Source: a virus
Taxonomy: Duplodnaviria > Caudoviricetes
Virus record (IMG/VR): IMGVR_UViG_3300028805_000057
Location: 1-64,000 of that record
Length of the DNA stretch: 64,000 bases
Strand: one strand, 5' to 3'
Positions 9,233 to 63,231 of the stretch are shown one piece after another (the stretch's first letter is position 1; each line of letters begins with the position of its first letter). The notes under the pieces were generated by a model. That model had not been told where the DNA came from. It made no database searches and saw nothing but the letters and a program-made list of their open reading frames with translations. Made by a program: the position numbers and the translations under genes.

Positions 9233-9359
9233 TAGAATAGCCCTACAACGCTCTATTTTGCCTTTTAAGGCCTGTTTGGTATATTCCAGGTATATTTTAT
9301 CAAGGAAATATGAAATGGGCCTAAATGGGCATTCTGGTGCATCTGAAGGGTATTTCTAG
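9233..9359. repeat. ~120-bp palindromic repeat, copy 2
   Basis: same core GCCTTTTAAGGCCTGTTTGG...GGGCCTAAATGGGC. Confidence 0.9.
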
Positions 9360-9619
9360 AAAGGAGAAAAATAAATGACAGAAGATTTTGAAAATGAAGA
9401 ATATGGAAGAGGTGAAATTCATACTACATATAATTTATTATCAGATGGTTTCTTTGGTTTTTTATTATCTAAAGACATGGAAGCAGAATCATTAGAAGAT
9501 TTAAGTGCATGGATGGAAAAGAATAGGCCTTGGATTGATGATGTTGTCAGACATACATGTGAACGAATAAAAATAATTAAAAGAACAGAAATTATTGCAG
9601 ATAAGGAGATTGGTGAAAT

Positions 9620-10388: not shown

Positions 10389-11576
10389 AGAGGAGGTGAC
10401 AGCCTATGAGTAAATATAAGGGAAATAAATACCTTGTGGATAATGAAACAGGTCGTAGCACTTTGGTAGACGATGATATAGAAATCATTACAAATGATCT
10501 AGAGGAATATATGTATAATAAACAATATTTCCTTTTAGGTAAGTATGACGATAATATAGTCTATACCAAAACAGACTATAACAAGAATATTCACAGGAAA
10601 TATATTCTTAGATTAGTTTAAAAGTTACAAAAGGAGTATCAAAGATATTTGGTACTCTCTTTATTTTCAGATTGAATGAAGTAAAGTGAGGTAATTATGT
10701 TAACATTTATAACAGTAATGGTTGTCTTTATATTTTTTATAGGTTGCGCAATATTTAATAAAGTATGCAGAATGTTTAATATTATGATGGCAAACCAGAG
10801 AATTATAACTGACAACCAAAAAGTAATTATGGAAAAGATAAAACAAATAAATGGAGGTAATAAGAATGGAACTTCTAACAATAATACTATTAACACTGAC
10901 ATTTAGCATTACTATTGTAAATTTAGTAGTATTAAAATGGATTTGGAAAGATATTGATCATATTGATAATAAATGCTATGCAACTATGTCGATAATCCAT
11001 GACGAAGCAGAAAAGACTAGAGAATATTTAAAAGCTGAAATAATAAAGTCAGAGAATGGATATGTATACTATGAACCAAATGAAGAAAACGAAACTAGTT
11101 GATGCAAGATGCATTAATTGTAAATTTTATGTTAAATACAAACAATATTGTGAGAAACATAAAATGCCAACAAAAAAGACAAGTATGTGTCTACAAATTG
11201 AAAGGAAAGATATTTAATGGCGTATCGAGTTGAAGAATTTGATTCTCAAGGAAGATTTCTTATATGCGAGATATATGATACTATTGAAGAAGCTAGGGAT
11301 TTTAATAGAGTACACCTAAGTAGAAATCCTAGTCATTATATCAAAACATATAGATGTAATAGTAAAGGAAATAGTTACACACATAAGGAAGTTGTTTTAT
11401 AAGGAGGTATTAACATTGGTTTACAATGATGATGAAATAAAAAACTTAATGAAAGAAAAGAACTTAACAGAAAAACAGGCAAAAAGAAAGATATATTGTC
11501 GAGAGTGGTATAAGAACTTTTATAGTGAACACCGAGATGAACGGTTAGAATATTATAAACAACATAGAAAGGAGAA

Positions 11577-28645: not shown

Positions 28646-29508
28646 TGGGCGGAGGAAGTTGGACAAAAAGAGATTTTGTAAACTATACTTGTGCAACTAA
28701 GAGCACTGCAACTATTGATCATTTAACTGGTTCTTATACAGTCTCAAGTCACCAAGATATTTACAAGTCAAGAACAATGGCGGCAGAGCTTAATCCTAGA
28801 AATGTTACCAGGGAATGCTGTGATTCTGAAGAGCATCCTAATACAATTCCTGTAATCTTAGCTCTTGATGTAACTGGTTCTATGGGGCAGACAGCTCAGG
28901 AAGTGGCTCAGAAGCTTAATGTCATCATCACAGATCTTTACAGCAAAGTTAAAGATGTTGAGTTTATGATTATGGGTATTGGTGACTTTGCATACGATGA
29001 TTGTCCTCTTCAGGTAAGTCAGTTCGAGTCGGACATCAGAATTGCAGAACAGCTTGACAAGATATTCTTTGAAGGTGGCGGCGGTGGAAATAGCTATGAA
29101 TCATATACTGCCGCTTGGTATTTTGCATTAAAGCATACAAAGCTTGACTGCTGGAATAGAGGAAAGAGAGGAATCCTGATTACTTTAGGAGATGAGAATC
29201 TTAATCCTTATATTCCTTATAAGTCTTTAGCAAAAGCAACTGGTGACACACTTCAGGGAGATGTAGAAACAAAAGATATTTATCCTGAGGTTATAAAGAA
29301 GTATGATGTACATCACATTTATGTAGATCATCATGGATATGACTATGCGGACTTTAATACTTGGACAGAGTATCTTGACGGTCAGCATTTCCACAAAGCA
29401 AAAGTAAATGACATTGCAGCATTGATTACAGACATCGTTACATCTGCAGATACTAATGCAGGATTTGAAACAAGCGATACAACAAATGATGGAGGAATTA
29501 CATGGTAA
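28645..29508 (+). CDS. von Willebrand factor A domain protein ending GITW
   Basis: MIDAS motif LALDVTGSM; GGGG..ESY; LITLGDE. Confidence 0.85.
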   Translation: MGGGSWTKRDFVNYTCATKSTATIDHLTGSYTVSSHQDIYKSRTMAAELNPRNVTRECCDSEEHPNTIPVILALDVTGSMGQTAQEVAQKLNVIITDLYSKVKDVEFMIMGIGDFAYDDCPLQVSQFESDIRIAEQLDKIFFEGGGGGNSYESYTAAWYFALKHTKLDCWNRGKRGILITLGDENLNPYIPYKSLAKATGDTLQGDVETKDIYPEVIKKYDVHHIYVDHHGYDYADFNTWTEYLDGQHFHKAKVNDIAALITDIVTSADTNAGFETSDTTNDGGITW

Positions 29509-30692
29509 AAGATGTGAGTATTATTATCGGAGCAAATTACGGTGACGAAGGTAAGGGCCGTATGTCCGATTATCTCGCCAACAAAGCTATACAAGCAGGA
29601 CAGTCCACAATCACAATTTTGTCTAATGGCGGAGCACAAAGAGGTCACACAGTAGTGCTCGATAATGGTTTTACACATATCTTTCATCATTTTGGTTCAG
29701 GTACACTGACTGGGGCGGATACATATCTTCCCCAGTCATTTATCGTGAATCCGATGATATTTATGAAGGAGTATAATGAACTATTGAATAGTCCACTTGG
29801 CAGAGATACAAGTTTATGGCCAAAGATATTTGTGGATCCAGCATGTTTAATCTCTACTCCTTTTGATATGATGAACAATCAAATTATCGAAGAACACAGA
29901 ACACATAGACATGGTTCTTGTGGTGTTGGTATCTGGGAGACCATTTTAAGACAAGGTGCAAGTTTTCATGATTTTTACATGATGACTAATGAGCAGTTGT
30001 TTACCTATCTTAAATGGGTTCGCGATACTTACTCTGCAAAAAGACTGTCTGATAAGAACATAAAGTCATTTGGTGCATGGAAAGATATTTACTTCAATGA
30101 TAATATGATACATAACTATATTAAAGACTTTAGACAAATGTCAGCACTTATAAATGTGGATATGACCGGTGGAAGTTTCTTAAAGTCATATGACCACTTA
30201 ATATTCGAAAATGGTCAAGGTCTATTAATTGATTATGATTCAGATCCCGTTTATAGTACGCCAAGCTATACTGGATTAAAAGAACCATTAAAGATAATTA
30301 ATAGGCTGAAAGAGAATGATTATAATGTTAATGTTGAAGCATACTACATATCAAGAAGTTATTGCACAAGACATGGCATGGGTAATCTCCGGTTTGAATA
30401 TGATCCTAAAGATATTCGAGGTTTACAATTGAATTTGAATTCGGAAACAAATAAATTTAATACAAATCAGGGCATATTTAGGTATGGTAAAATTGATAAC
30501 TTTGATGATGTTAGAGCTTCTATTGAACAAGATTTATATAAGAATAATTATGTTGTAGACAATAAGAATGCAAATGTTGTTATAACGCATTGTGATGAAC
30601 TTGATGTACCATTTAATAAGATATTTGGACTTGGTAAGACATATAAAGTATATGGTCCAAAGAGAAATGATCCTGTAAATATAGTAAATTAA
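29502..30692 (+). CDS. purA: divergent adenylosuccinate synthetase family protein
   Basis: GANYGDEGKG, GGAQRGHT, HGSCGVGI, FENGQGLLID, TRHGMG. Confidence 0.8.
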   Translation: MVKDVSIIIGANYGDEGKGRMSDYLANKAIQAGQSTITILSNGGAQRGHTVVLDNGFTHIFHHFGSGTLTGADTYLPQSFIVNPMIFMKEYNELLNSPLGRDTSLWPKIFVDPACLISTPFDMMNNQIIEEHRTHRHGSCGVGIWETILRQGASFHDFYMMTNEQLFTYLKWVRDTYSAKRLSDKNIKSFGAWKDIYFNDNMIHNYIKDFRQMSALINVDMTGGSFLKSYDHLIFENGQGLLIDYDSDPVYSTPSYTGLKEPLKIINRLKENDYNVNVEAYYISRSYCTRHGMGNLRFEYDPKDIRGLQLNLNSETNKFNTNQGIFRYGKIDNFDDVRASIEQDLYKNNYVVDNKNANVVITHCDELDVPFNKIFGLGKTYKVYGPKRNDPVNIVN

Positions 30693-35251: not shown

Positions 35252-35412
35252 AGAATGCCTCTCAAACGCTCTATTTTGTTCCACTACTCAGTACCTTCGT
35301 AGACGCTCAGATTTGCCCGTAAAGGCCTGTTTGGTATTTCTAGGTAGATTTATACTACTTTATACCCAAAAAGCCGAATATGGGCATTTTGGTGCGTTAC
35401 AGAGGTATTCTA
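35252..35412. repeat. palindromic repeat, copy 3 (extra partial left arm)
   Basis: GCCCGTAAAGGCCTGTTTGG ... TGGGCATTTTGGTGCGTTACAGAGGTATTC. Confidence 0.85.
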
Positions 35413-35424
35413 GAGTTTGAAATT

Positions 35425-48852: not shown

Positions 48853-49821
48853 ATGGGAAAGTTTGCAGATTTTCGTGAGAATTTTATGCATAATTTTAAC
48901 GATATGAGAAATAATCTTGAGTCTAGAACAGGATTATTAACAGGTATCGGTGTTGTTGCAGGTTTAGCAGGAACTGTATTAGCTTGTAGAGCAACATTAA
49001 AGATTGCAAATAAAGCAGAAGAGCATAAGAAACTTGTAGATGACACAAAAGCAAATTGTACAGAATTAGCTCTTGATGATAAGGCAACACATAAGGAAGT
49101 AATGAAGGCATATCGTCATATTGGTGTTGATTATGTAAGACAGTATTGGCCTGCAGTAGGTTTATTAGCTGTTGGTTATGGATTGATTATTAGAGCACAT
49201 TGTATTGAAGTTGCAAAGAATGAAGCTTTGATGACAGCATATATCGGTCTTGAGCAGCTGTTTAATAAGTATCGTACAAGAGTTGCAGAGCAGGTTGGAG
49301 AAGAAAGAGAAGCTCAGATCTATAAGCAAGCAAAGATTGATCAGGCAGAAGAGAATAAGATTGGCCAGTATTCCGGCGAATTTAGAAATGGTTCATATTT
49401 ATTGTTTAATGATTCTTGTAGAGATTATCAGGAAGGTTGTCCTCAGGCAAATGATTTCTTGATTAGTACAATTGAGCAAGAATTAAATATGAAATTTGAC
49501 ACATTCACACCAGTTTATTTGAATGATGTAATGAGAGCATGTGGTCATGAAGAAGTAAATGGTGGATGGAATTGGGTTAAAGCAAAAGGTTTGACTGATA
49601 AGATTGATTTTAAGATTCATGATGTAGACTTCAATCCTGAATTTGCAAAAGGATATGGATTTGTAAAAGGTCAGGAACCGATTGCAAAGTTATATCTTGA
49701 TGGTTTCGTTCATGTATCAAAACTTTATAGTGCAGAATATCGTCAGTATCTGAAGAAAGATAAAGCTGATGGTGGTATTATGGGTGGCGAGATTGGAAGA
49801 GATCAGGTTTTAATTGGTTAA
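48853..49821 (+). CDS. DUF6353-like phage protein
   Basis: G.V...GTVLACRATLK; YWPAV; AY..L...F..YR.RV; VYLNDV. Confidence 0.7.
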   Translation: MGKFADFRENFMHNFNDMRNNLESRTGLLTGIGVVAGLAGTVLACRATLKIANKAEEHKKLVDDTKANCTELALDDKATHKEVMKAYRHIGVDYVRQYWPAVGLLAVGYGLIIRAHCIEVAKNEALMTAYIGLEQLFNKYRTRVAEQVGEEREAQIYKQAKIDQAEENKIGQYSGEFRNGSYLLFNDSCRDYQEGCPQANDFLISTIEQELNMKFDTFTPVYLNDVMRACGHEEVNGGWNWVKAKGLTDKIDFKIHDVDFNPEFAKGYGFVKGQEPIAKLYLDGFVHVSKLYSAEYRQYLKKDKADGGIMGGEIGRDQVLIG

Positions 49822-49918
49822 ATGATATTTGGGGTTTCAGTAGCTCGTTACCCAAGATATCTTTAACATAGAGGAGCTCGGCGGGTCTGATTAACCACTC
49901 GGCTCGCTGAGTTTCTTT

Positions 49919-50056
49919 TATTTAATTTTATAATAGGGCTCCTAAGAGAAAAATATACCCCAAAAATAAAATACTCATAAAAAATAGACTCCTGGTTTTA
50001 TGACTGTTCAAAAATTACACTTATCACTCTTAGGAGTCCTGTTATGAAATTAAATA
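49919..50056 (+). ncRNA. 30-bp stem enclosing a loop antisense to an RBS and start codon (element 1)
   Basis: ...ATAATAGGGCTCCTAAGAG / CTCTTAGGAGTCCTGTTATG...; loop contains CAT and ACTCCT. Confidence 0.5.
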
Positions 50057-50365
50057 GGAGGACTACAAATAATGGAAGAAAGTACTGCAACAAAGATAAT
50101 TGATAAATATATAGAAATGTATGATGAAATTATAAATGATAAAACATCTACAAGAATTCGTAAATCAATTGCTGAAAGTAATAAGAATTTATTAGAGAAT
50201 GTAAAAGGAGATATAATAAATGCTGAAGAAGGTAATTAAGTATTGGTTTAGATTTACTTTAATAATAAATATTTTATCTTGGATAACCGGTTTAGCAAAT
50301 AATTTAAAAGAAAATAAAGATATTGTTAATTTATATTATGATGATATAGAAATTTAAATATGTAT

Positions 50366-50489
50366 TCTAAGTCTCATAGTAGGGCTCTTAGATTATCCGT
50401 CTTTTTGATGCTTGTGGTCTTTAATGACATGTGGACTCCTTTCTATGATAATATTTTTCCTATCTAAGGGCCCCATTATGAGACTTAGA
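50366..50489 (+). ncRNA. 28-bp stem enclosing a loop antisense to an RBS and start codon (element 2)
   Basis: TCTAAGTCTCATAGTAGGGCTCTTAGAT / ATCTAAGGGCCCCATTATGAGACTTAGA; loop contains CATGTGGACTCCTTTCT. Confidence 0.5.
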
Positions 50490-50510
50490 GATTATATTTG
50501 GAGGTAATTT

Positions 50511-51632
50511 ATGAATACACCTTTAGTAACAGTAATAATGCAAAATTATAATACAAATAAAGATATTCTTGACATTGCAATTAATTCAGTAATTAATCAA
50601 ACATTTAATGACTTTGCTTTTATTTTTATTGATGATTGGTCCACAGATTATGATGTTTCTTCATTTTTTGCTGAAATTGAGACTAAATGGAAGAATAAAA
50701 GGCCTGATATGCCGATACATCTTATAAAGAAACCACAAAATGGTCCTTTAGATGAAAGAGATCATAATCATGGTCATTCATTTTGTAGGAATTGGGGATT
50801 GGATTTAGTAAAAACAGCAAAGATATCTGATTATGTCTTTTTTATGGATTCAGATGATGAGATTATGCCTAATTGTCTTGAAATATTATGGTCAAAGATA
50901 GAGAAAGATCCTGAAGTTGAAATCAGTATAGGTAATTTTATAAGAGATGAAGTAAGATGGTGTCAGTTAAAGGATACTTATCATGATGCAGAAGTAAATG
51001 AAGGTACATTAGGTCCTCATGACAATAAGACTTATACAAATCTTGAAGCATTGGATATATTATGTGATCCTTATATGATTCCTGGTCATCATCCTACAAT
51101 GCCGAGTGTTGCTTTTTGTGCCACATGGAATAAGATATTTAAAGTAAGCCTTTTTGATAATGTCAGATTTCCTGATTATCGTACAAAAGATGATAACTTC
51201 ACAGCACATAGATTATTGTGGAATGCTAAGAAGATAGTTTTTACATTTGAGATAACCTACTTCTATCGTCCAGGTGGAAAGTTAGCAGACGCCAATCTCT
51301 ACAAGACAATGGATATAATAGATGCGCATCGAGATAGAGTTGAATTCTTTGAAAAGATATTTAACGTGTATGACAGAGAACACTATTATAATGAAAATAT
51401 TGACTTTTATAAAGAAGAATCTGAAATAAAGATATTCTACAATGAGTATTTAGTATTCTTGTATACTTTTATGAGAGTTATTGATGCTTCAAATGATAAC
51501 TTTAGAAAGAAACAACTTGCAAATTTATTAAATGAAAAACTTATTACTGAGTTATCTCATATAATATTAATCGATCCAAAATTTGTAAAAAGCGCGTATG
51601 AATTTGCAAGGAGGATTAGAAAAAATGAGTAA
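50511..51632 (+). CDS. glycosyltransferase family 2 (GT-A)
   Basis: VTVIM..YN, SVINQTF, IDDWSTD, RN.GL, FMDSDD, WNKIF. Confidence 0.9.
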   Translation: MNTPLVTVIMQNYNTNKDILDIAINSVINQTFNDFAFIFIDDWSTDYDVSSFFAEIETKWKNKRPDMPIHLIKKPQNGPLDERDHNHGHSFCRNWGLDLVKTAKISDYVFFMDSDDEIMPNCLEILWSKIEKDPEVEISIGNFIRDEVRWCQLKDTYHDAEVNEGTLGPHDNKTYTNLEALDILCDPYMIPGHHPTMPSVAFCATWNKIFKVSLFDNVRFPDYRTKDDNFTAHRLLWNAKKIVFTFEITYFYRPGGKLADANLYKTMDIIDAHRDRVEFFEKIFNVYDREHYYNENIDFYKEESEIKIFYNEYLVFLYTFMRVIDASNDNFRKKQLANLLNEKLITELSHIILIDPKFVKSAYEFARRIRKNE

Positions 51633-51812: not shown

Positions 51813-51940
51813 CTACAATACCTCTGTAACGCACAGATTTGCCCGTAAAGGCCTGTTTGGGTATTTTATAGTATATTTATAGGGTAAAACATGAAATAGG
51901 CCTAAATGGGCATTCTGGTGCGTCAGAAGGGCATTCTAGA
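51813..51940. repeat. palindromic repeat, copy 4
   Basis: ATACCTCTGTAACGC...GCCCGTAAAGGCC...GGCCTAAATGGGC. Confidence 0.9.
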
Positions 51941-52481
51941 AAAGGAGATAATATGACTTTAGATAAAACAATAAAGATGTTAACACAAGATGATTATGGT
52001 AATTGTGATTGCGGGGATTGGTGTAGAGCATATGATAAAGCAGTTCAAATAACAAAACAATTATCTTTTCTTGAAAGTGAGTATAATGCTTATCATATAG
52101 ATAGTGATTATTGGAAAGGCATAAAATATGCCATAGATGTTTTAAATCATGAATAATATACGGAGGAATTAAAATGAAAGGATATATACATATTGATAAC
52201 ATATATGGATTAATATCGGGACATAGTAACTATCATGGAGACAATATACTTTCGGCATTAACGTGTATTGCAGAAGGTAAAGATGTTACTAAGCCAATAA
52301 TGTCATTGGATGAAGAATATTACTCAAATAAAGAATTTAATAAATTCATTAATGATATAAAAAGTGATATTAATCAAATAATAACAAAGAACAAAGGTAT
52401 AAAAAGTGTTGAAGCTCAGGAAAGAATTAGAACAGCTCAACAAATACTTGATATTATTAACAAGCATACAAAGAGGTTAGT

Positions 52482-60897: not shown

Positions 60898-60965
60898 TAT
60901 TTATAAAGTGAGGTGATGCTAAGTGCAGTATTATTCATGTGATAAACAAGTCACCTTCAATGTAG

Positions 60966-61087
60966 AAATACCTCTGTAACGCACAGATTTGCCCGTAAAG
61001 GCCTGTTTGGGTATTTTATGGTATATTTTATATGGTAAAACATGAAATAGGCCTAAATGGGCAAAATATGAGCTTACAGAGGTATTT
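60966..61087. repeat. palindromic repeat, copy 5
   Basis: AAATACCTCTGTAA ... TTACAGAGGTATTT termini. Confidence 0.9.
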
Positions 61088-61231
61088 GACAAAAAAAATG
61101 ATATTTATGGGAACGATAACAAAATCGATATTGGGTGTTATCATATTATAGTTGTATTAGGGTGGGTTTAACTATAATGATATTTGAATACTCGAACAAG
61201 AAAACACGAACAAGAAAAGGAGAAAACAAAA

Positions 61232-62389: not shown

Positions 62390-62511
62390 TAGAATACCTC
62401 TCAGACGCACCAGAATGCCCGTAAAGGCCTGTTTGGGGGTTTTATGATATATTTATAGGGTAAAACATGAAACCGGTCTAAATGAGGCTTCTGGTGCGTT
62501 ATAAGGGTATA
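62390..62511. repeat. palindromic repeat, copy 6
   Basis: same core; GACGCACCAGAA/TTCTGGTGCGTT arms. Confidence 0.85.
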
Positions 62512-62939
62512 TGAGGTTTAAAGATATTTATGAAAATACAGAGAAAACTATTAACTATTGAACAAAAGCATGAAATCTGTACAAAATATTATGATAATTG
62601 TGAAGAATGTCCTTTATACTCAAAAGTGTTAAATCATTTCTGCATTTATAATTTAGATCAAGTACAATATGCTATTGACGATTATTTAAATGAAGAAATT
62701 GAGGTATAACTATGTTAGCATATAATGTTCATGTAGATAATGATAATGAAGTTTATTGTATTGTTGCACCTACAGAAAAAGAAGCTATTGAATATGCTAT
62801 AGAACTTTATAAAAAAGATTATGGAACTGAAGTAACTGAAGAAGATTGTAAGGTTATTTGGAACTATGATGAAGATTATTAATCAGGAAATGCCCTTGTA
62901 ACGATAACACTTCACAAGTGAACTGTAGTTCGTTACTAC

Positions 62940-63058
62940 AATACCTCTGTAACGCTCTATTTTGCCCGTAAAGGCCTGTTTGGTATAATTGTGGTATAAA
63001 TCTACCCTAAAATACTAAATGGGCCTAAATGAGGCTTTAAATGCGTTACAGAGGCATA
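62940..63058. repeat. palindromic repeat, copy 7
   Basis: ATACCTCTGTAACGC ... GCGTTACAGAGGCAT. Confidence 0.9.
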
Positions 63059-63231
63059 TTAAGGAAAGGAGATAAATATGGATAATGAAGTTAATATAGA
63101 AAGAGTTAACAAAATTTTAAATTTTGCGATATGTTGGGCTGATGATACTGTAGATTTAATACGTAATGGTTATACTGAAGATGAAATAATTGAAGCAGTT
63201 AAAACATTATTTAAAGAAGAAGGTAAATAAT

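Follow-up and report, generated by a model that had tools for sequence, protein, structure and literature searches.

Why does a phage carry two very long hairpins, each closing a large loop, directly ahead of a small gene and a glycosyltransferase gene? The hairpins, designated HP1 and HP2, lie in a 64-kb stretch of rumen phage DNA (the “window”). An initial annotation had regarded them as a constant scaffold presenting a variable guide that silences a host or phage mRNA, and had listed type I toxin-antitoxin-like mini-genes and cis-acting switches as alternatives. Judged from their sequences and those of their relatives, HP1 and HP2 are paralogues that arose by an old duplication and represent one conserved plus-strand RNA element. 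That the plus-strand RNA structure is functional is highly probable, and is far better supported than any particular mode of action. The explanation we favor, to which we assign a probability of about 0.45, is a cis-acting post-transcriptional gate in the sense mRNA that would work through RNase III-type processing, occlusion of the ribosome binding site (RBS), or both.

Few non-coding RNA elements of phages have been described, and the comparative support in this case is unusually clean (an alignment of 19 copies, numerous double compensatory changes and a wobble bias of 15:1). The locus would provide a concrete case of large phages of Gram-positive gut or rumen bacteria exerting post-transcriptional control over accessory genes, in this case those of a glycosyltransferase module. 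Should the loop act in trans, it would represent a new phage route to interfere with translation initiation.

Genome, locus and relatives

The window comprises the first 64 kb of a 147,894-bp IMG/VR virus record that is rated complete and derives from an uncultured rumen phage. The genome has a G+C content of ~30% and a strongly positive GC skew, and its plus strand carries nearly all genes, the exceptions being a few near the genome ends. Gene starts bear strong AGGAG-type Shine-Dalgarno (SD) sequences, and the large replicase is 41% identical to its counterpart in Faecalibacterium phage FP_oengus. From this SD usage and replicase match, the host is likely to be a low-GC Gram-positive gut or rumen bacterium. 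Neither tRNA nor tmRNA genes were found in the window. An adenylosuccinate synthetase homologue at window positions 29502-30692 (PF00709, E = 3.4e-24) is a candidate PurZ-type enzyme for 2-aminoadenine DNA. Features of the hairpin locus are listed in Table 1.

Table 1. Features of the hairpin locus, in window coordinates.
Feature	Position	Strand	Remarks
DUF6353 gene	48853-49821	+	
Terminator-like hairpin ACTCGG-CTCG-CTGAGT (49897-49912) and U-tract	49897..49923	+	3′ of DUF6353 gene
HP1, whole	49913-50062	+	
HP1 5′ arm	49913..49948	+	Inverted repeat, fold, and covariation in the HP1 alignment
HP1 loop, 78 nt	49949..50026	+	Anti-SD-like GACTCCT at 49987-49993
HP1 3′ arm	50027..50062	+	Last 7 nt are the orf55 SD AGGAGGA (50056-50062), paired with the upstream U-tract
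Minus-strand mini-ORF, loop 1	49928..49978	-	16 codons after AGGAG; unconserved
orf55, small protein of unknown function	50072..50239	+	
orf45, small hydrophobic protein	50220..50357	+	Start overlaps orf55 end
HP2, whole	50353-50502	+	
HP2 5′ arm	50353..50393 (conserved core 50366-50393)	+	Begins at the orf45 stop codon
HP2 loop, 68 nt	50394..50461	+	GACTCCTTTCTAT at 50434-50446
Minus-strand mini-ORF, loop 2	50374..50430	-	18 codons after AGGAG; SD and ATG recur in relatives, peptide does not
HP2 3′ arm	50462..50502 (core 50462-50489)	+	Outer end touches the glycosyltransferase SD GGAGG (50500-50504)
Family 2 glycosyltransferase (GT2) gene	50511..51632	+	Pfam PF00535, E = 3.7e-15; downstream of HP2

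Relatives were collected by two routes. Searching with the pair of flanking proteins yielded a single IMG/VR relative, L005 (genome G001), and glycosyltransferase homologues led to 11 more contigs with the same gene order. Including the window's own genome (WIN), 13 contigs were compared at this locus; the related contigs derive from rumen and gut metagenomes, and their flanking proteins are 42-85% identical. HP2 or an HP2 variant stands ahead of the same glycosyltransferase gene in 13/13 contigs. HP1 is found in seven genomes (WIN, L005, L132, L133, L136, L137 and L141), which are exactly those with orf55. A homologue of orf45 is located 5′ of HP2 in every relative read upstream, including those without orf55. 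DNA-pattern scans of IMG/VR recovered only the known relative after a hairpin filter of ~120 chance loci, and the locus DNA gave no match to cultured-phage sequences.

Part of the terminator-like hairpin that follows the DUF6353 gene is shared with HP1: its U-tract doubles as the outermost 5′ arm, an arrangement that is the same in L133 and L137. Note that a second small conserved hairpin lies at window 49823-49866, directly after the DUF6353 stop codon (GATATTTGGGG...CCCAAGATATC, loop TTTCAGTAGCTCGTTA), and that its stem carries a compensatory change in L136 and L137 (TGAG...CTCA). Genomes without orf55 (L134, L138, L139, L140:2700-2790) carry a G+C-rich terminator-like hairpin 5′ of the orf45 homologue. 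In the last three of these it is followed by (T)CCTCCT and then by the SD GAAAGGA, another juxtaposition of anti-SD and SD.

The hairpins and the strand that folds

Both stems are real, and longer than the 30 bp and 28 bp originally reported. Counting G-U, the arms of HP1 form 36/36 pairs on the plus strand and those of HP2 form 38/41. When all hairpins with loops of 20-200 nt were ranked over the whole 147,894-bp genome, HP1 and HP2 came first and second, and they are also its two longest inverted repeats. The stem word ATA(A/G)TAGGGCTC(C/T)TA, pointed out previously as common to both, was confirmed and is confined to the HP1 and HP2 stems. Calculated folding energies of the plus strand are -50.8 kcal/mol for HP1 and -52.2 kcal/mol for HP2 (z = -9.8 and -7.2 versus shuffled sequence); those of the minus strand are weaker (-36.3 and -42.2 kcal/mol).

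The initial annotation had noted an excess of G-U pairs favoring the plus strand. This excess is real in the window and rises to 76 G-U versus 5 A-C over 19 hairpins from 12 genomes (by set, 43 + 33 G-U on the plus strand and 3 + 2 A-C). Strand base composition alone would predict a G-U to A-C ratio of only ~1.5:1, and the observed ratio is ~15:1; from a wobble bias of this kind it follows that the sense RNA folds. Pair 26/147 of the HP1 alignment is G-U in 7/7 copies, several other G-U pairs are fixed across genomes, and so is one A/U-C mismatch beside the invariant GGG:CCC core. Because palindrome repair at the DNA level would erase such pairs and such a mismatch, the folded molecule is sense RNA or, less plausibly, plus-strand single-stranded DNA. 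The choice of the plus strand as the folded species was thus borne out by the wobble bias, and by the covariation described below.

Covariation and descent of the two hairpins

In the relative L005 the two hairpins occupy the corresponding sites and carry compensatory substitutions. Alignments were prepared for HP2 (12 sequences, 28 pairs) and HP1 (7 sequences, 36 pairs). Standard pairs are formed in 97% of the cells for HP2 and 95% for HP1, with double-sided changes at 16/28 and 11/36 pairs, respectively, and in each case the covariation score was reached by 0/500 shuffles. As a control, the 3′ partner was slid by 1-3 columns, whereupon pairing dropped to 30-53% (HP2) and 41-58% (HP1). RNAalifold independently arrives at this helix and detects no conserved structure within the loop. 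With a covariance model derived from the full set of 19 aligned copies, two and only two copies were identified in each of the two complete genomes, one or two per locus, and none elsewhere.

Copies of HP1 most resemble other copies of HP1, and copies of HP2 other copies of HP2. The duplication is therefore old, with each copy inherited along with its site, and concerted evolution of the two hairpins within a genome is ruled out.

An element that acts as DNA could share some of these properties. It might be a recombination site bounding the orf55 cassette, the relic of a MITE-like transposon, or an invertible promoter switch, with the apparent covariation arising from quasi-palindrome repair. 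Such an origin would suit a short segment flanked by long terminal inverted repeats, two copies of which bracket a gene cassette lacking in some relatives, and would also suit the mosaic history of the locus, in which L132 has a close glycosyltransferase and a diverged HP2. We nevertheless consider it very improbable, since each complete genome holds only two copies, at one locus, and HP1 and HP2 are each inherited orthologously. Moreover, all 22 loops examined have one orientation, homogenization would erase the fixed G-T wobbles and the conserved A/T-C mismatch, and the phage is without a serine or tyrosine recombinase (no PF00239 or PF00589 match in the 148-kb genome; a host enzyme might serve instead). 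Two specific forms were rejected. An inverton is incompatible with the 22 loops in 13 genomes, which carry plus-strand CTCCT or lack it and are never inverted. A dispersed MITE of the Correia/NEMIS kind would share the terminal inverted repeats around a short non-coding core but would be present in many dispersed copies, which were not found.

The glycosyltransferase of L132 is the closest to that of the window (L132:2849-4146 versus window 50353-51632; 85% amino acid and 83-87% nucleotide identity), yet L132 has one of the most diverged HP2 copies (58-66%), which places a recombination boundary between hairpin and gene. The most distant relatives, L142:2608-2830 and L150:2715-2975, show a tandem or extended form. 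L142 has a hairpin with the GGG:CCC core and a loop resembling that of HP1; beyond it, an HP2-type loop with GACTCCTTTC is clamped by a 12-bp helix. L150 has a ~45-bp helix plus a second CCTCCT-bearing region downstream. Alternative pairing of the terminator/antiterminator type in these two contigs is disfavored in predicted folds.

The loops and their anti-SD motif

The description of the two loops as unrelated and variable had to be abandoned. Both contain GACTCCT, a word with only three plus-strand occurrences in the genome, and orthologous loops are homologous, with 66-96% identity over aligned columns and frequent indels; blocks of the HP1 loop are conserved in L133, L137, L132 and L141. 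Most loops bear a plus-strand CTCCT, which is conserved down to L142 and L150 and is extended to GACTCCTTTCTAT in five HP2 loops. Within it, CUCCUUUCUA is identical to the 3′ end of Bacillus-type 16S rRNA. The motif is the reverse complement of AGAAAGGAG, which is among the most enriched intergenic words of the phage and is its favored SD word. It is predicted to be 60-97% unpaired (97% in the HP2 loop of the window). By inspection of the alignment, changes in the loop anti-SD are not matched by changes in the downstream SD or its spacing. Elsewhere in the genome, intergenic plus-strand CTCCTTT marks minus-strand gene starts or terminator arms, and a role as a genome-wide promoter word was ruled out for the loop motif because GACTCCT occurs so rarely.

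That the loops are antisense to an SD was correctly recognized at the outset, and a CAU often lies 3-12 nt 5′ of the motif. Read on the minus strand, AGGAG is followed by ATG at this distance in 10/15 HP2-type loops and 2/7 HP1 loops, the background at other minus-strand AGGAG sites in the genome being 15%. This enrichment of CAU ahead of CUCCU is genuine.

A rival reading of the hairpins is that the minus strand of the loop is itself functional, providing an antisense start region (promoter-like AT box, perfect SD and ATG) for a micro-peptide, or for an RNA antisense to the genes upstream. The high frequency of the AGGAG-ATG arrangement in HP2-type loops speaks for this, as does the resemblance of (C)ATAGAAAGGAG to the gene-start modules of the phage. 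However, the peptides range from 2 to 28 aa and are unrelated beyond their stem-dictated parts; the ORFs are absent in L132, L141, L133, L150 and 5/7 HP1 loops; no CGC(G/T)AAAA box is found at the right spacing; the genes of the phage are all on the plus strand save a few near its ends; and the G-U bias reflects selection on the plus-strand fold. Function of the minus strand is accordingly quite improbable. The two mini-ORFs read as initially reported (Table 1), and the one in loop 1, being unconserved, is probably not a gene. A type I toxin-antitoxin-like mini-gene finds no support in peptides of this size that are unconserved and have no counterpart in many relatives. A type I toxin gene as such was rejected for want of a conserved toxin ORF of ~20-40 aa, usually hydrophobic, with its own SD.

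The concept of a constant scaffold with a variable guide did not survive the comparison either. Relatives with conserved stems were checked for swapped loops and showed none, each loop being homologous to the loop at the same site; loops are inherited with that site, and genomes carry one or two copies at one locus. Both loops were searched against the whole genome (blastn-short) for antisense targets, which yielded only generic SD words of up to 12 nt and, in a start region near 112154, a single match of 14 nt. Silencing of a specific phage mRNA start, as originally proposed, is not borne out, since only the generic SD word ATAGAAAGGAG, 11-12 nt, is complementary in the phage's own mRNAs. A programmable guide RNA against another gene of the same phage was dropped for the same reason. 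A 20-nt probe of the loop 2 start region had three matches in 185,579 prokaryote genomes, which is about the chance expectation; one is inside a Methanobrevibacter gene and two are in start regions of unrelated MAGs.

RNase III or another nuclease might free the upper helix and loop as a stable RNA of ~100-130 nt, whose exposed CUCCUUUCUA seed would pair in trans with phage or host SDs and dampen translation, in the manner of the CU-rich-seed small RNAs of Firmicutes. This excised small RNA is the main rival to the cis gate, and we regard it as unlikely. In its favor, the motif is predicted to be unpaired, is conserved and is common to both paralogues; it is perfectly complementary, over 9-12 nt, to the ATAGAAAGGAG-type SDs at 11563, 46838, 53925 and 110940; CAU is enriched 5′ of it; and the HP2-type loop of L142 is held by another helix, of 12 bp, as might be expected were the loop the payload. 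Yet the element is without its own promoter or terminator, its complementarity in the phage is only to the generic SD and extends to no longer target, and the 20-mer scan gave chance-level matches. The element is, moreover, always at a gene start, a position unnecessary for a trans-acting RNA. A more elaborate version, which we consider doubtful, is an initiation-site trap: a helix-clamped copy of the 16S tail (CUCCUUUCUA), often with CAU just 5′, that once excised would bind SD/AUG regions in trans and redistribute ribosomes in the infected cell; mRNAs with long AGAAAGGAG-type SDs might, for instance, be silenced. HP1 and HP2 would on this view be sibling regulators whose synthesis requires transcription to enter the glycosyltransferase module.

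Position relative to downstream genes and promoters

The distance from the end of the 3′ arm to the next start codon is 8-29 nt in 16/17 copies scored. HP2 of L141 lies 43 nt from the start codon, and L134 has a longer spacer. In 5/7 HP1 copies the orf55 SD AGGAGGA is within the HP1 helix, where it pairs with the U-tract of the preceding terminator and is predicted to be 1-3% unpaired. The glycosyltransferase SD is predicted to be buried by HP2 in WIN, L137 and L139. Several other HP2 copies have the SD 5-20 nt beyond the helix, where it is predicted to be open. In L005, L132, L136 and L141 the predicted fold leaves the glycosyltransferase SD open, and pairs it with the loop anti-SD once the 5′ arm is removed. 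Pairing probabilities calculated with and without the 5′ arm fit no single on/off rule, and a uniform SD switch was rejected. Of the ideas put forward initially, a cis switch acting at the downstream GGAGG fits best, although the expected occlusion of the SD is not uniform across relatives.

No promoter of the phage's recognizable class, CGC(G/T)AAAA-N10-TATWAT, is found between the terminator and the glycosyltransferase gene, and sigma-70-like matches in the loops are no commoner than in shuffles. These observations bear on a temporal switch of the kind described for T4 e, soc and I-TevI, in which a later-class promoter within the loop would give late RNAs without the 5′ arm, and early read-through RNAs would contain the full inhibitory helix. 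Such a switch has a precedent (PMC3014915) and would supply the promoter that is “missing” beyond the terminator, there being none of the CGC(G/T)AAAA type before orf55 or the glycosyltransferase gene; loop 2 contains a sigma-70-like ATGACA-17-GATAAT, and the SD is within the helix in the 5/7 HP1 copies noted above. Against it, the promoter-like matches occur at shuffle frequency and by inspection are unconserved across relatives, the conserved CTCCT would land in the promoter spacer, and in most copies removal of the 5′ arm does not free the SD. We rate this switch as improbable.

Three other intergenic motifs were observed in the course of this analysis. A promoter-like motif, CGC(G/T)(A/T)AAA-N10-TAT(A/T)AT, is present in ~25 copies 5′ of small gene cassettes (window sites include 1810, 3495, 4198, 4872, 35425, 41668, 43134, 46111, 46378 and 55713); at the left end, about 600-2750, it is on the minus strand with very short leaders. 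The 9-mer A[AT]GATATTT occurs 89 times on the plus strand and 2 times on the minus strand of the whole genome (G000), compared with expectations of about 11 and 7. Many occurrences overlap a stop codon and directly adjoin the following SD (examples at window 38132, 47540, 49822, 55286 and 62521). The 9-mer also lies immediately 5′ of HP2 in 8/12 relatives, and is a candidate promoter, start or processing signal. Finally, a ~130-nt repeat built around the core AAGGCCTGTTTGG, flanked by AATACCTCT...GCCCGTAAA and ...AAATGGGCCTAAATGGGC, has seven copies, all intergenic and on the plus strand (window 265-400, 9235-9370, 35290-35420, 51815-51950, 60965-61100, 62390-62530 and 62940-63070). One copy is just 3′ of the glycosyltransferase gene, and L142 has one 5′ of its glycosyltransferase.

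Proposed mode of action

For the cis-acting gate, the relevant structure is a helix of 28-36 bp that clamps a largely unstructured loop of 45-100 nt and would expose the CUCCU(UUCUA) anti-SD. RNase III cuts duplexes of about 20 bp or more. Measured against a substrate of continuous double-stranded RNA of at least ~20 bp, the helices span 28-36 bp and are 95-97% paired across relatives; long, near-perfect helices of this type could therefore be cut by host RNase III, the phage itself encoding no RNase III gene. We infer both this cleavage of HP1 and HP2 and any influence on translation. Once cut, a read-through transcript would release the downstream cistron with a defined 5′ end. In RNA that remains uncut, the base of the helix (HP1 and some HP2 copies) or the loop anti-SD (other HP2 copies) may hold the downstream RBS closed. 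The helix would in this manner form a barrier between units of transcription and translation. Note that a plain gate needs neither a loop of 45-100 nt nor the conserved CAU 5′ of CUCCU.

Comparison with known systems

No description of an element of the HP1/HP2 type was found in the literature searched, and it is absent from Rfam, which gave nothing at gathering threshold in the window and, at E up to 10, only chance-level matches in the region (E of at least 4.7). Its parts, namely an intercistronic helix, an anti-SD and a module boundary, are familiar. Their combination is unfamiliar: a helix of ~30 bp clamping a large open loop with a word like the 16S tail, in one or two syntenic copies. 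Ribozymes, retrons, attC sites, phi29 pRNA and single-strand promoters (Frpo) were considered and dropped, no defining motif or partner gene being present.

The nearest precedent for a cis gate is found in T4 genes e, soc, 49 and I-TevI, where helices that sequester the translation initiation region (TIR) silence these genes in long transcripts (PMC3014915). As in T4, a sense RNA helix located immediately 5′ of a phage gene can bury the SD in read-through RNA and is conserved across related phages (PMC3014915). Unlike those of T4, the HP1/HP2 helix is two to three times longer and encloses a loop of 45-100 nt with a conserved anti-SD. The SD is within the helix in some copies only, and the internal late promoter is represented by just weak, unconserved sigma-70-like matches.

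Processing helices for RNase III, such as the early intercistronic sites of T7 and the leader-trailer helices of rRNA, resemble HP1 and HP2 in being long intercistronic sense duplexes, the cutting of HP1 and HP2 being putative. The T7 sites differ from them in being shorter hairpins with internal bubbles and small loops. In pre-16S rRNA, a helix flanks RNA whose 3′ part reads ...CCUCCUUUCUA, as in HP1 and HP2; beyond this 10-nt word, no rRNA homology was found in either hairpin.

The Correia/NEMIS elements of Neisseria, which are MITEs, fold within mRNAs, where RNase III cleaves them, and they occur as hundreds of dispersed copies with target-site duplications. Like these, HP1 and HP2 measure about 100-150 nt, have terminal inverted repeats of ~26 bp or more and would be co-transcribed as long hairpins 5′ of coding regions. 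They differ in having one or two copies at one syntenic locus and in showing compensatory change.

The CU-rich-seed small RNAs of Firmicutes (RsaE/RoxS and LhrC) are encoded by independent genes, each having a promoter and terminator of its own, and form short hairpins. They share with HP1 and HP2 an unpaired C/U-rich motif that is complementary to SDs and present in sibling copies. In HP1 and HP2, by contrast, the motif is in a giant loop inside an mRNA leader.

The PeSLs of T4-type phages are numerous in each genome and consist of a sigma-70 promoter and a short terminator hairpin (PMC2839356, PMC4122927). Identity with PeSLs was rejected: HP1 and HP2 have no U-tract after the arms and no conserved or consensus promoter, and are only two in number. 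They are nevertheless like PeSLs in being repeated, structured intergenic motifs that bound small accessory-gene modules and coincide with the gain, loss and mosaic exchange of those modules.
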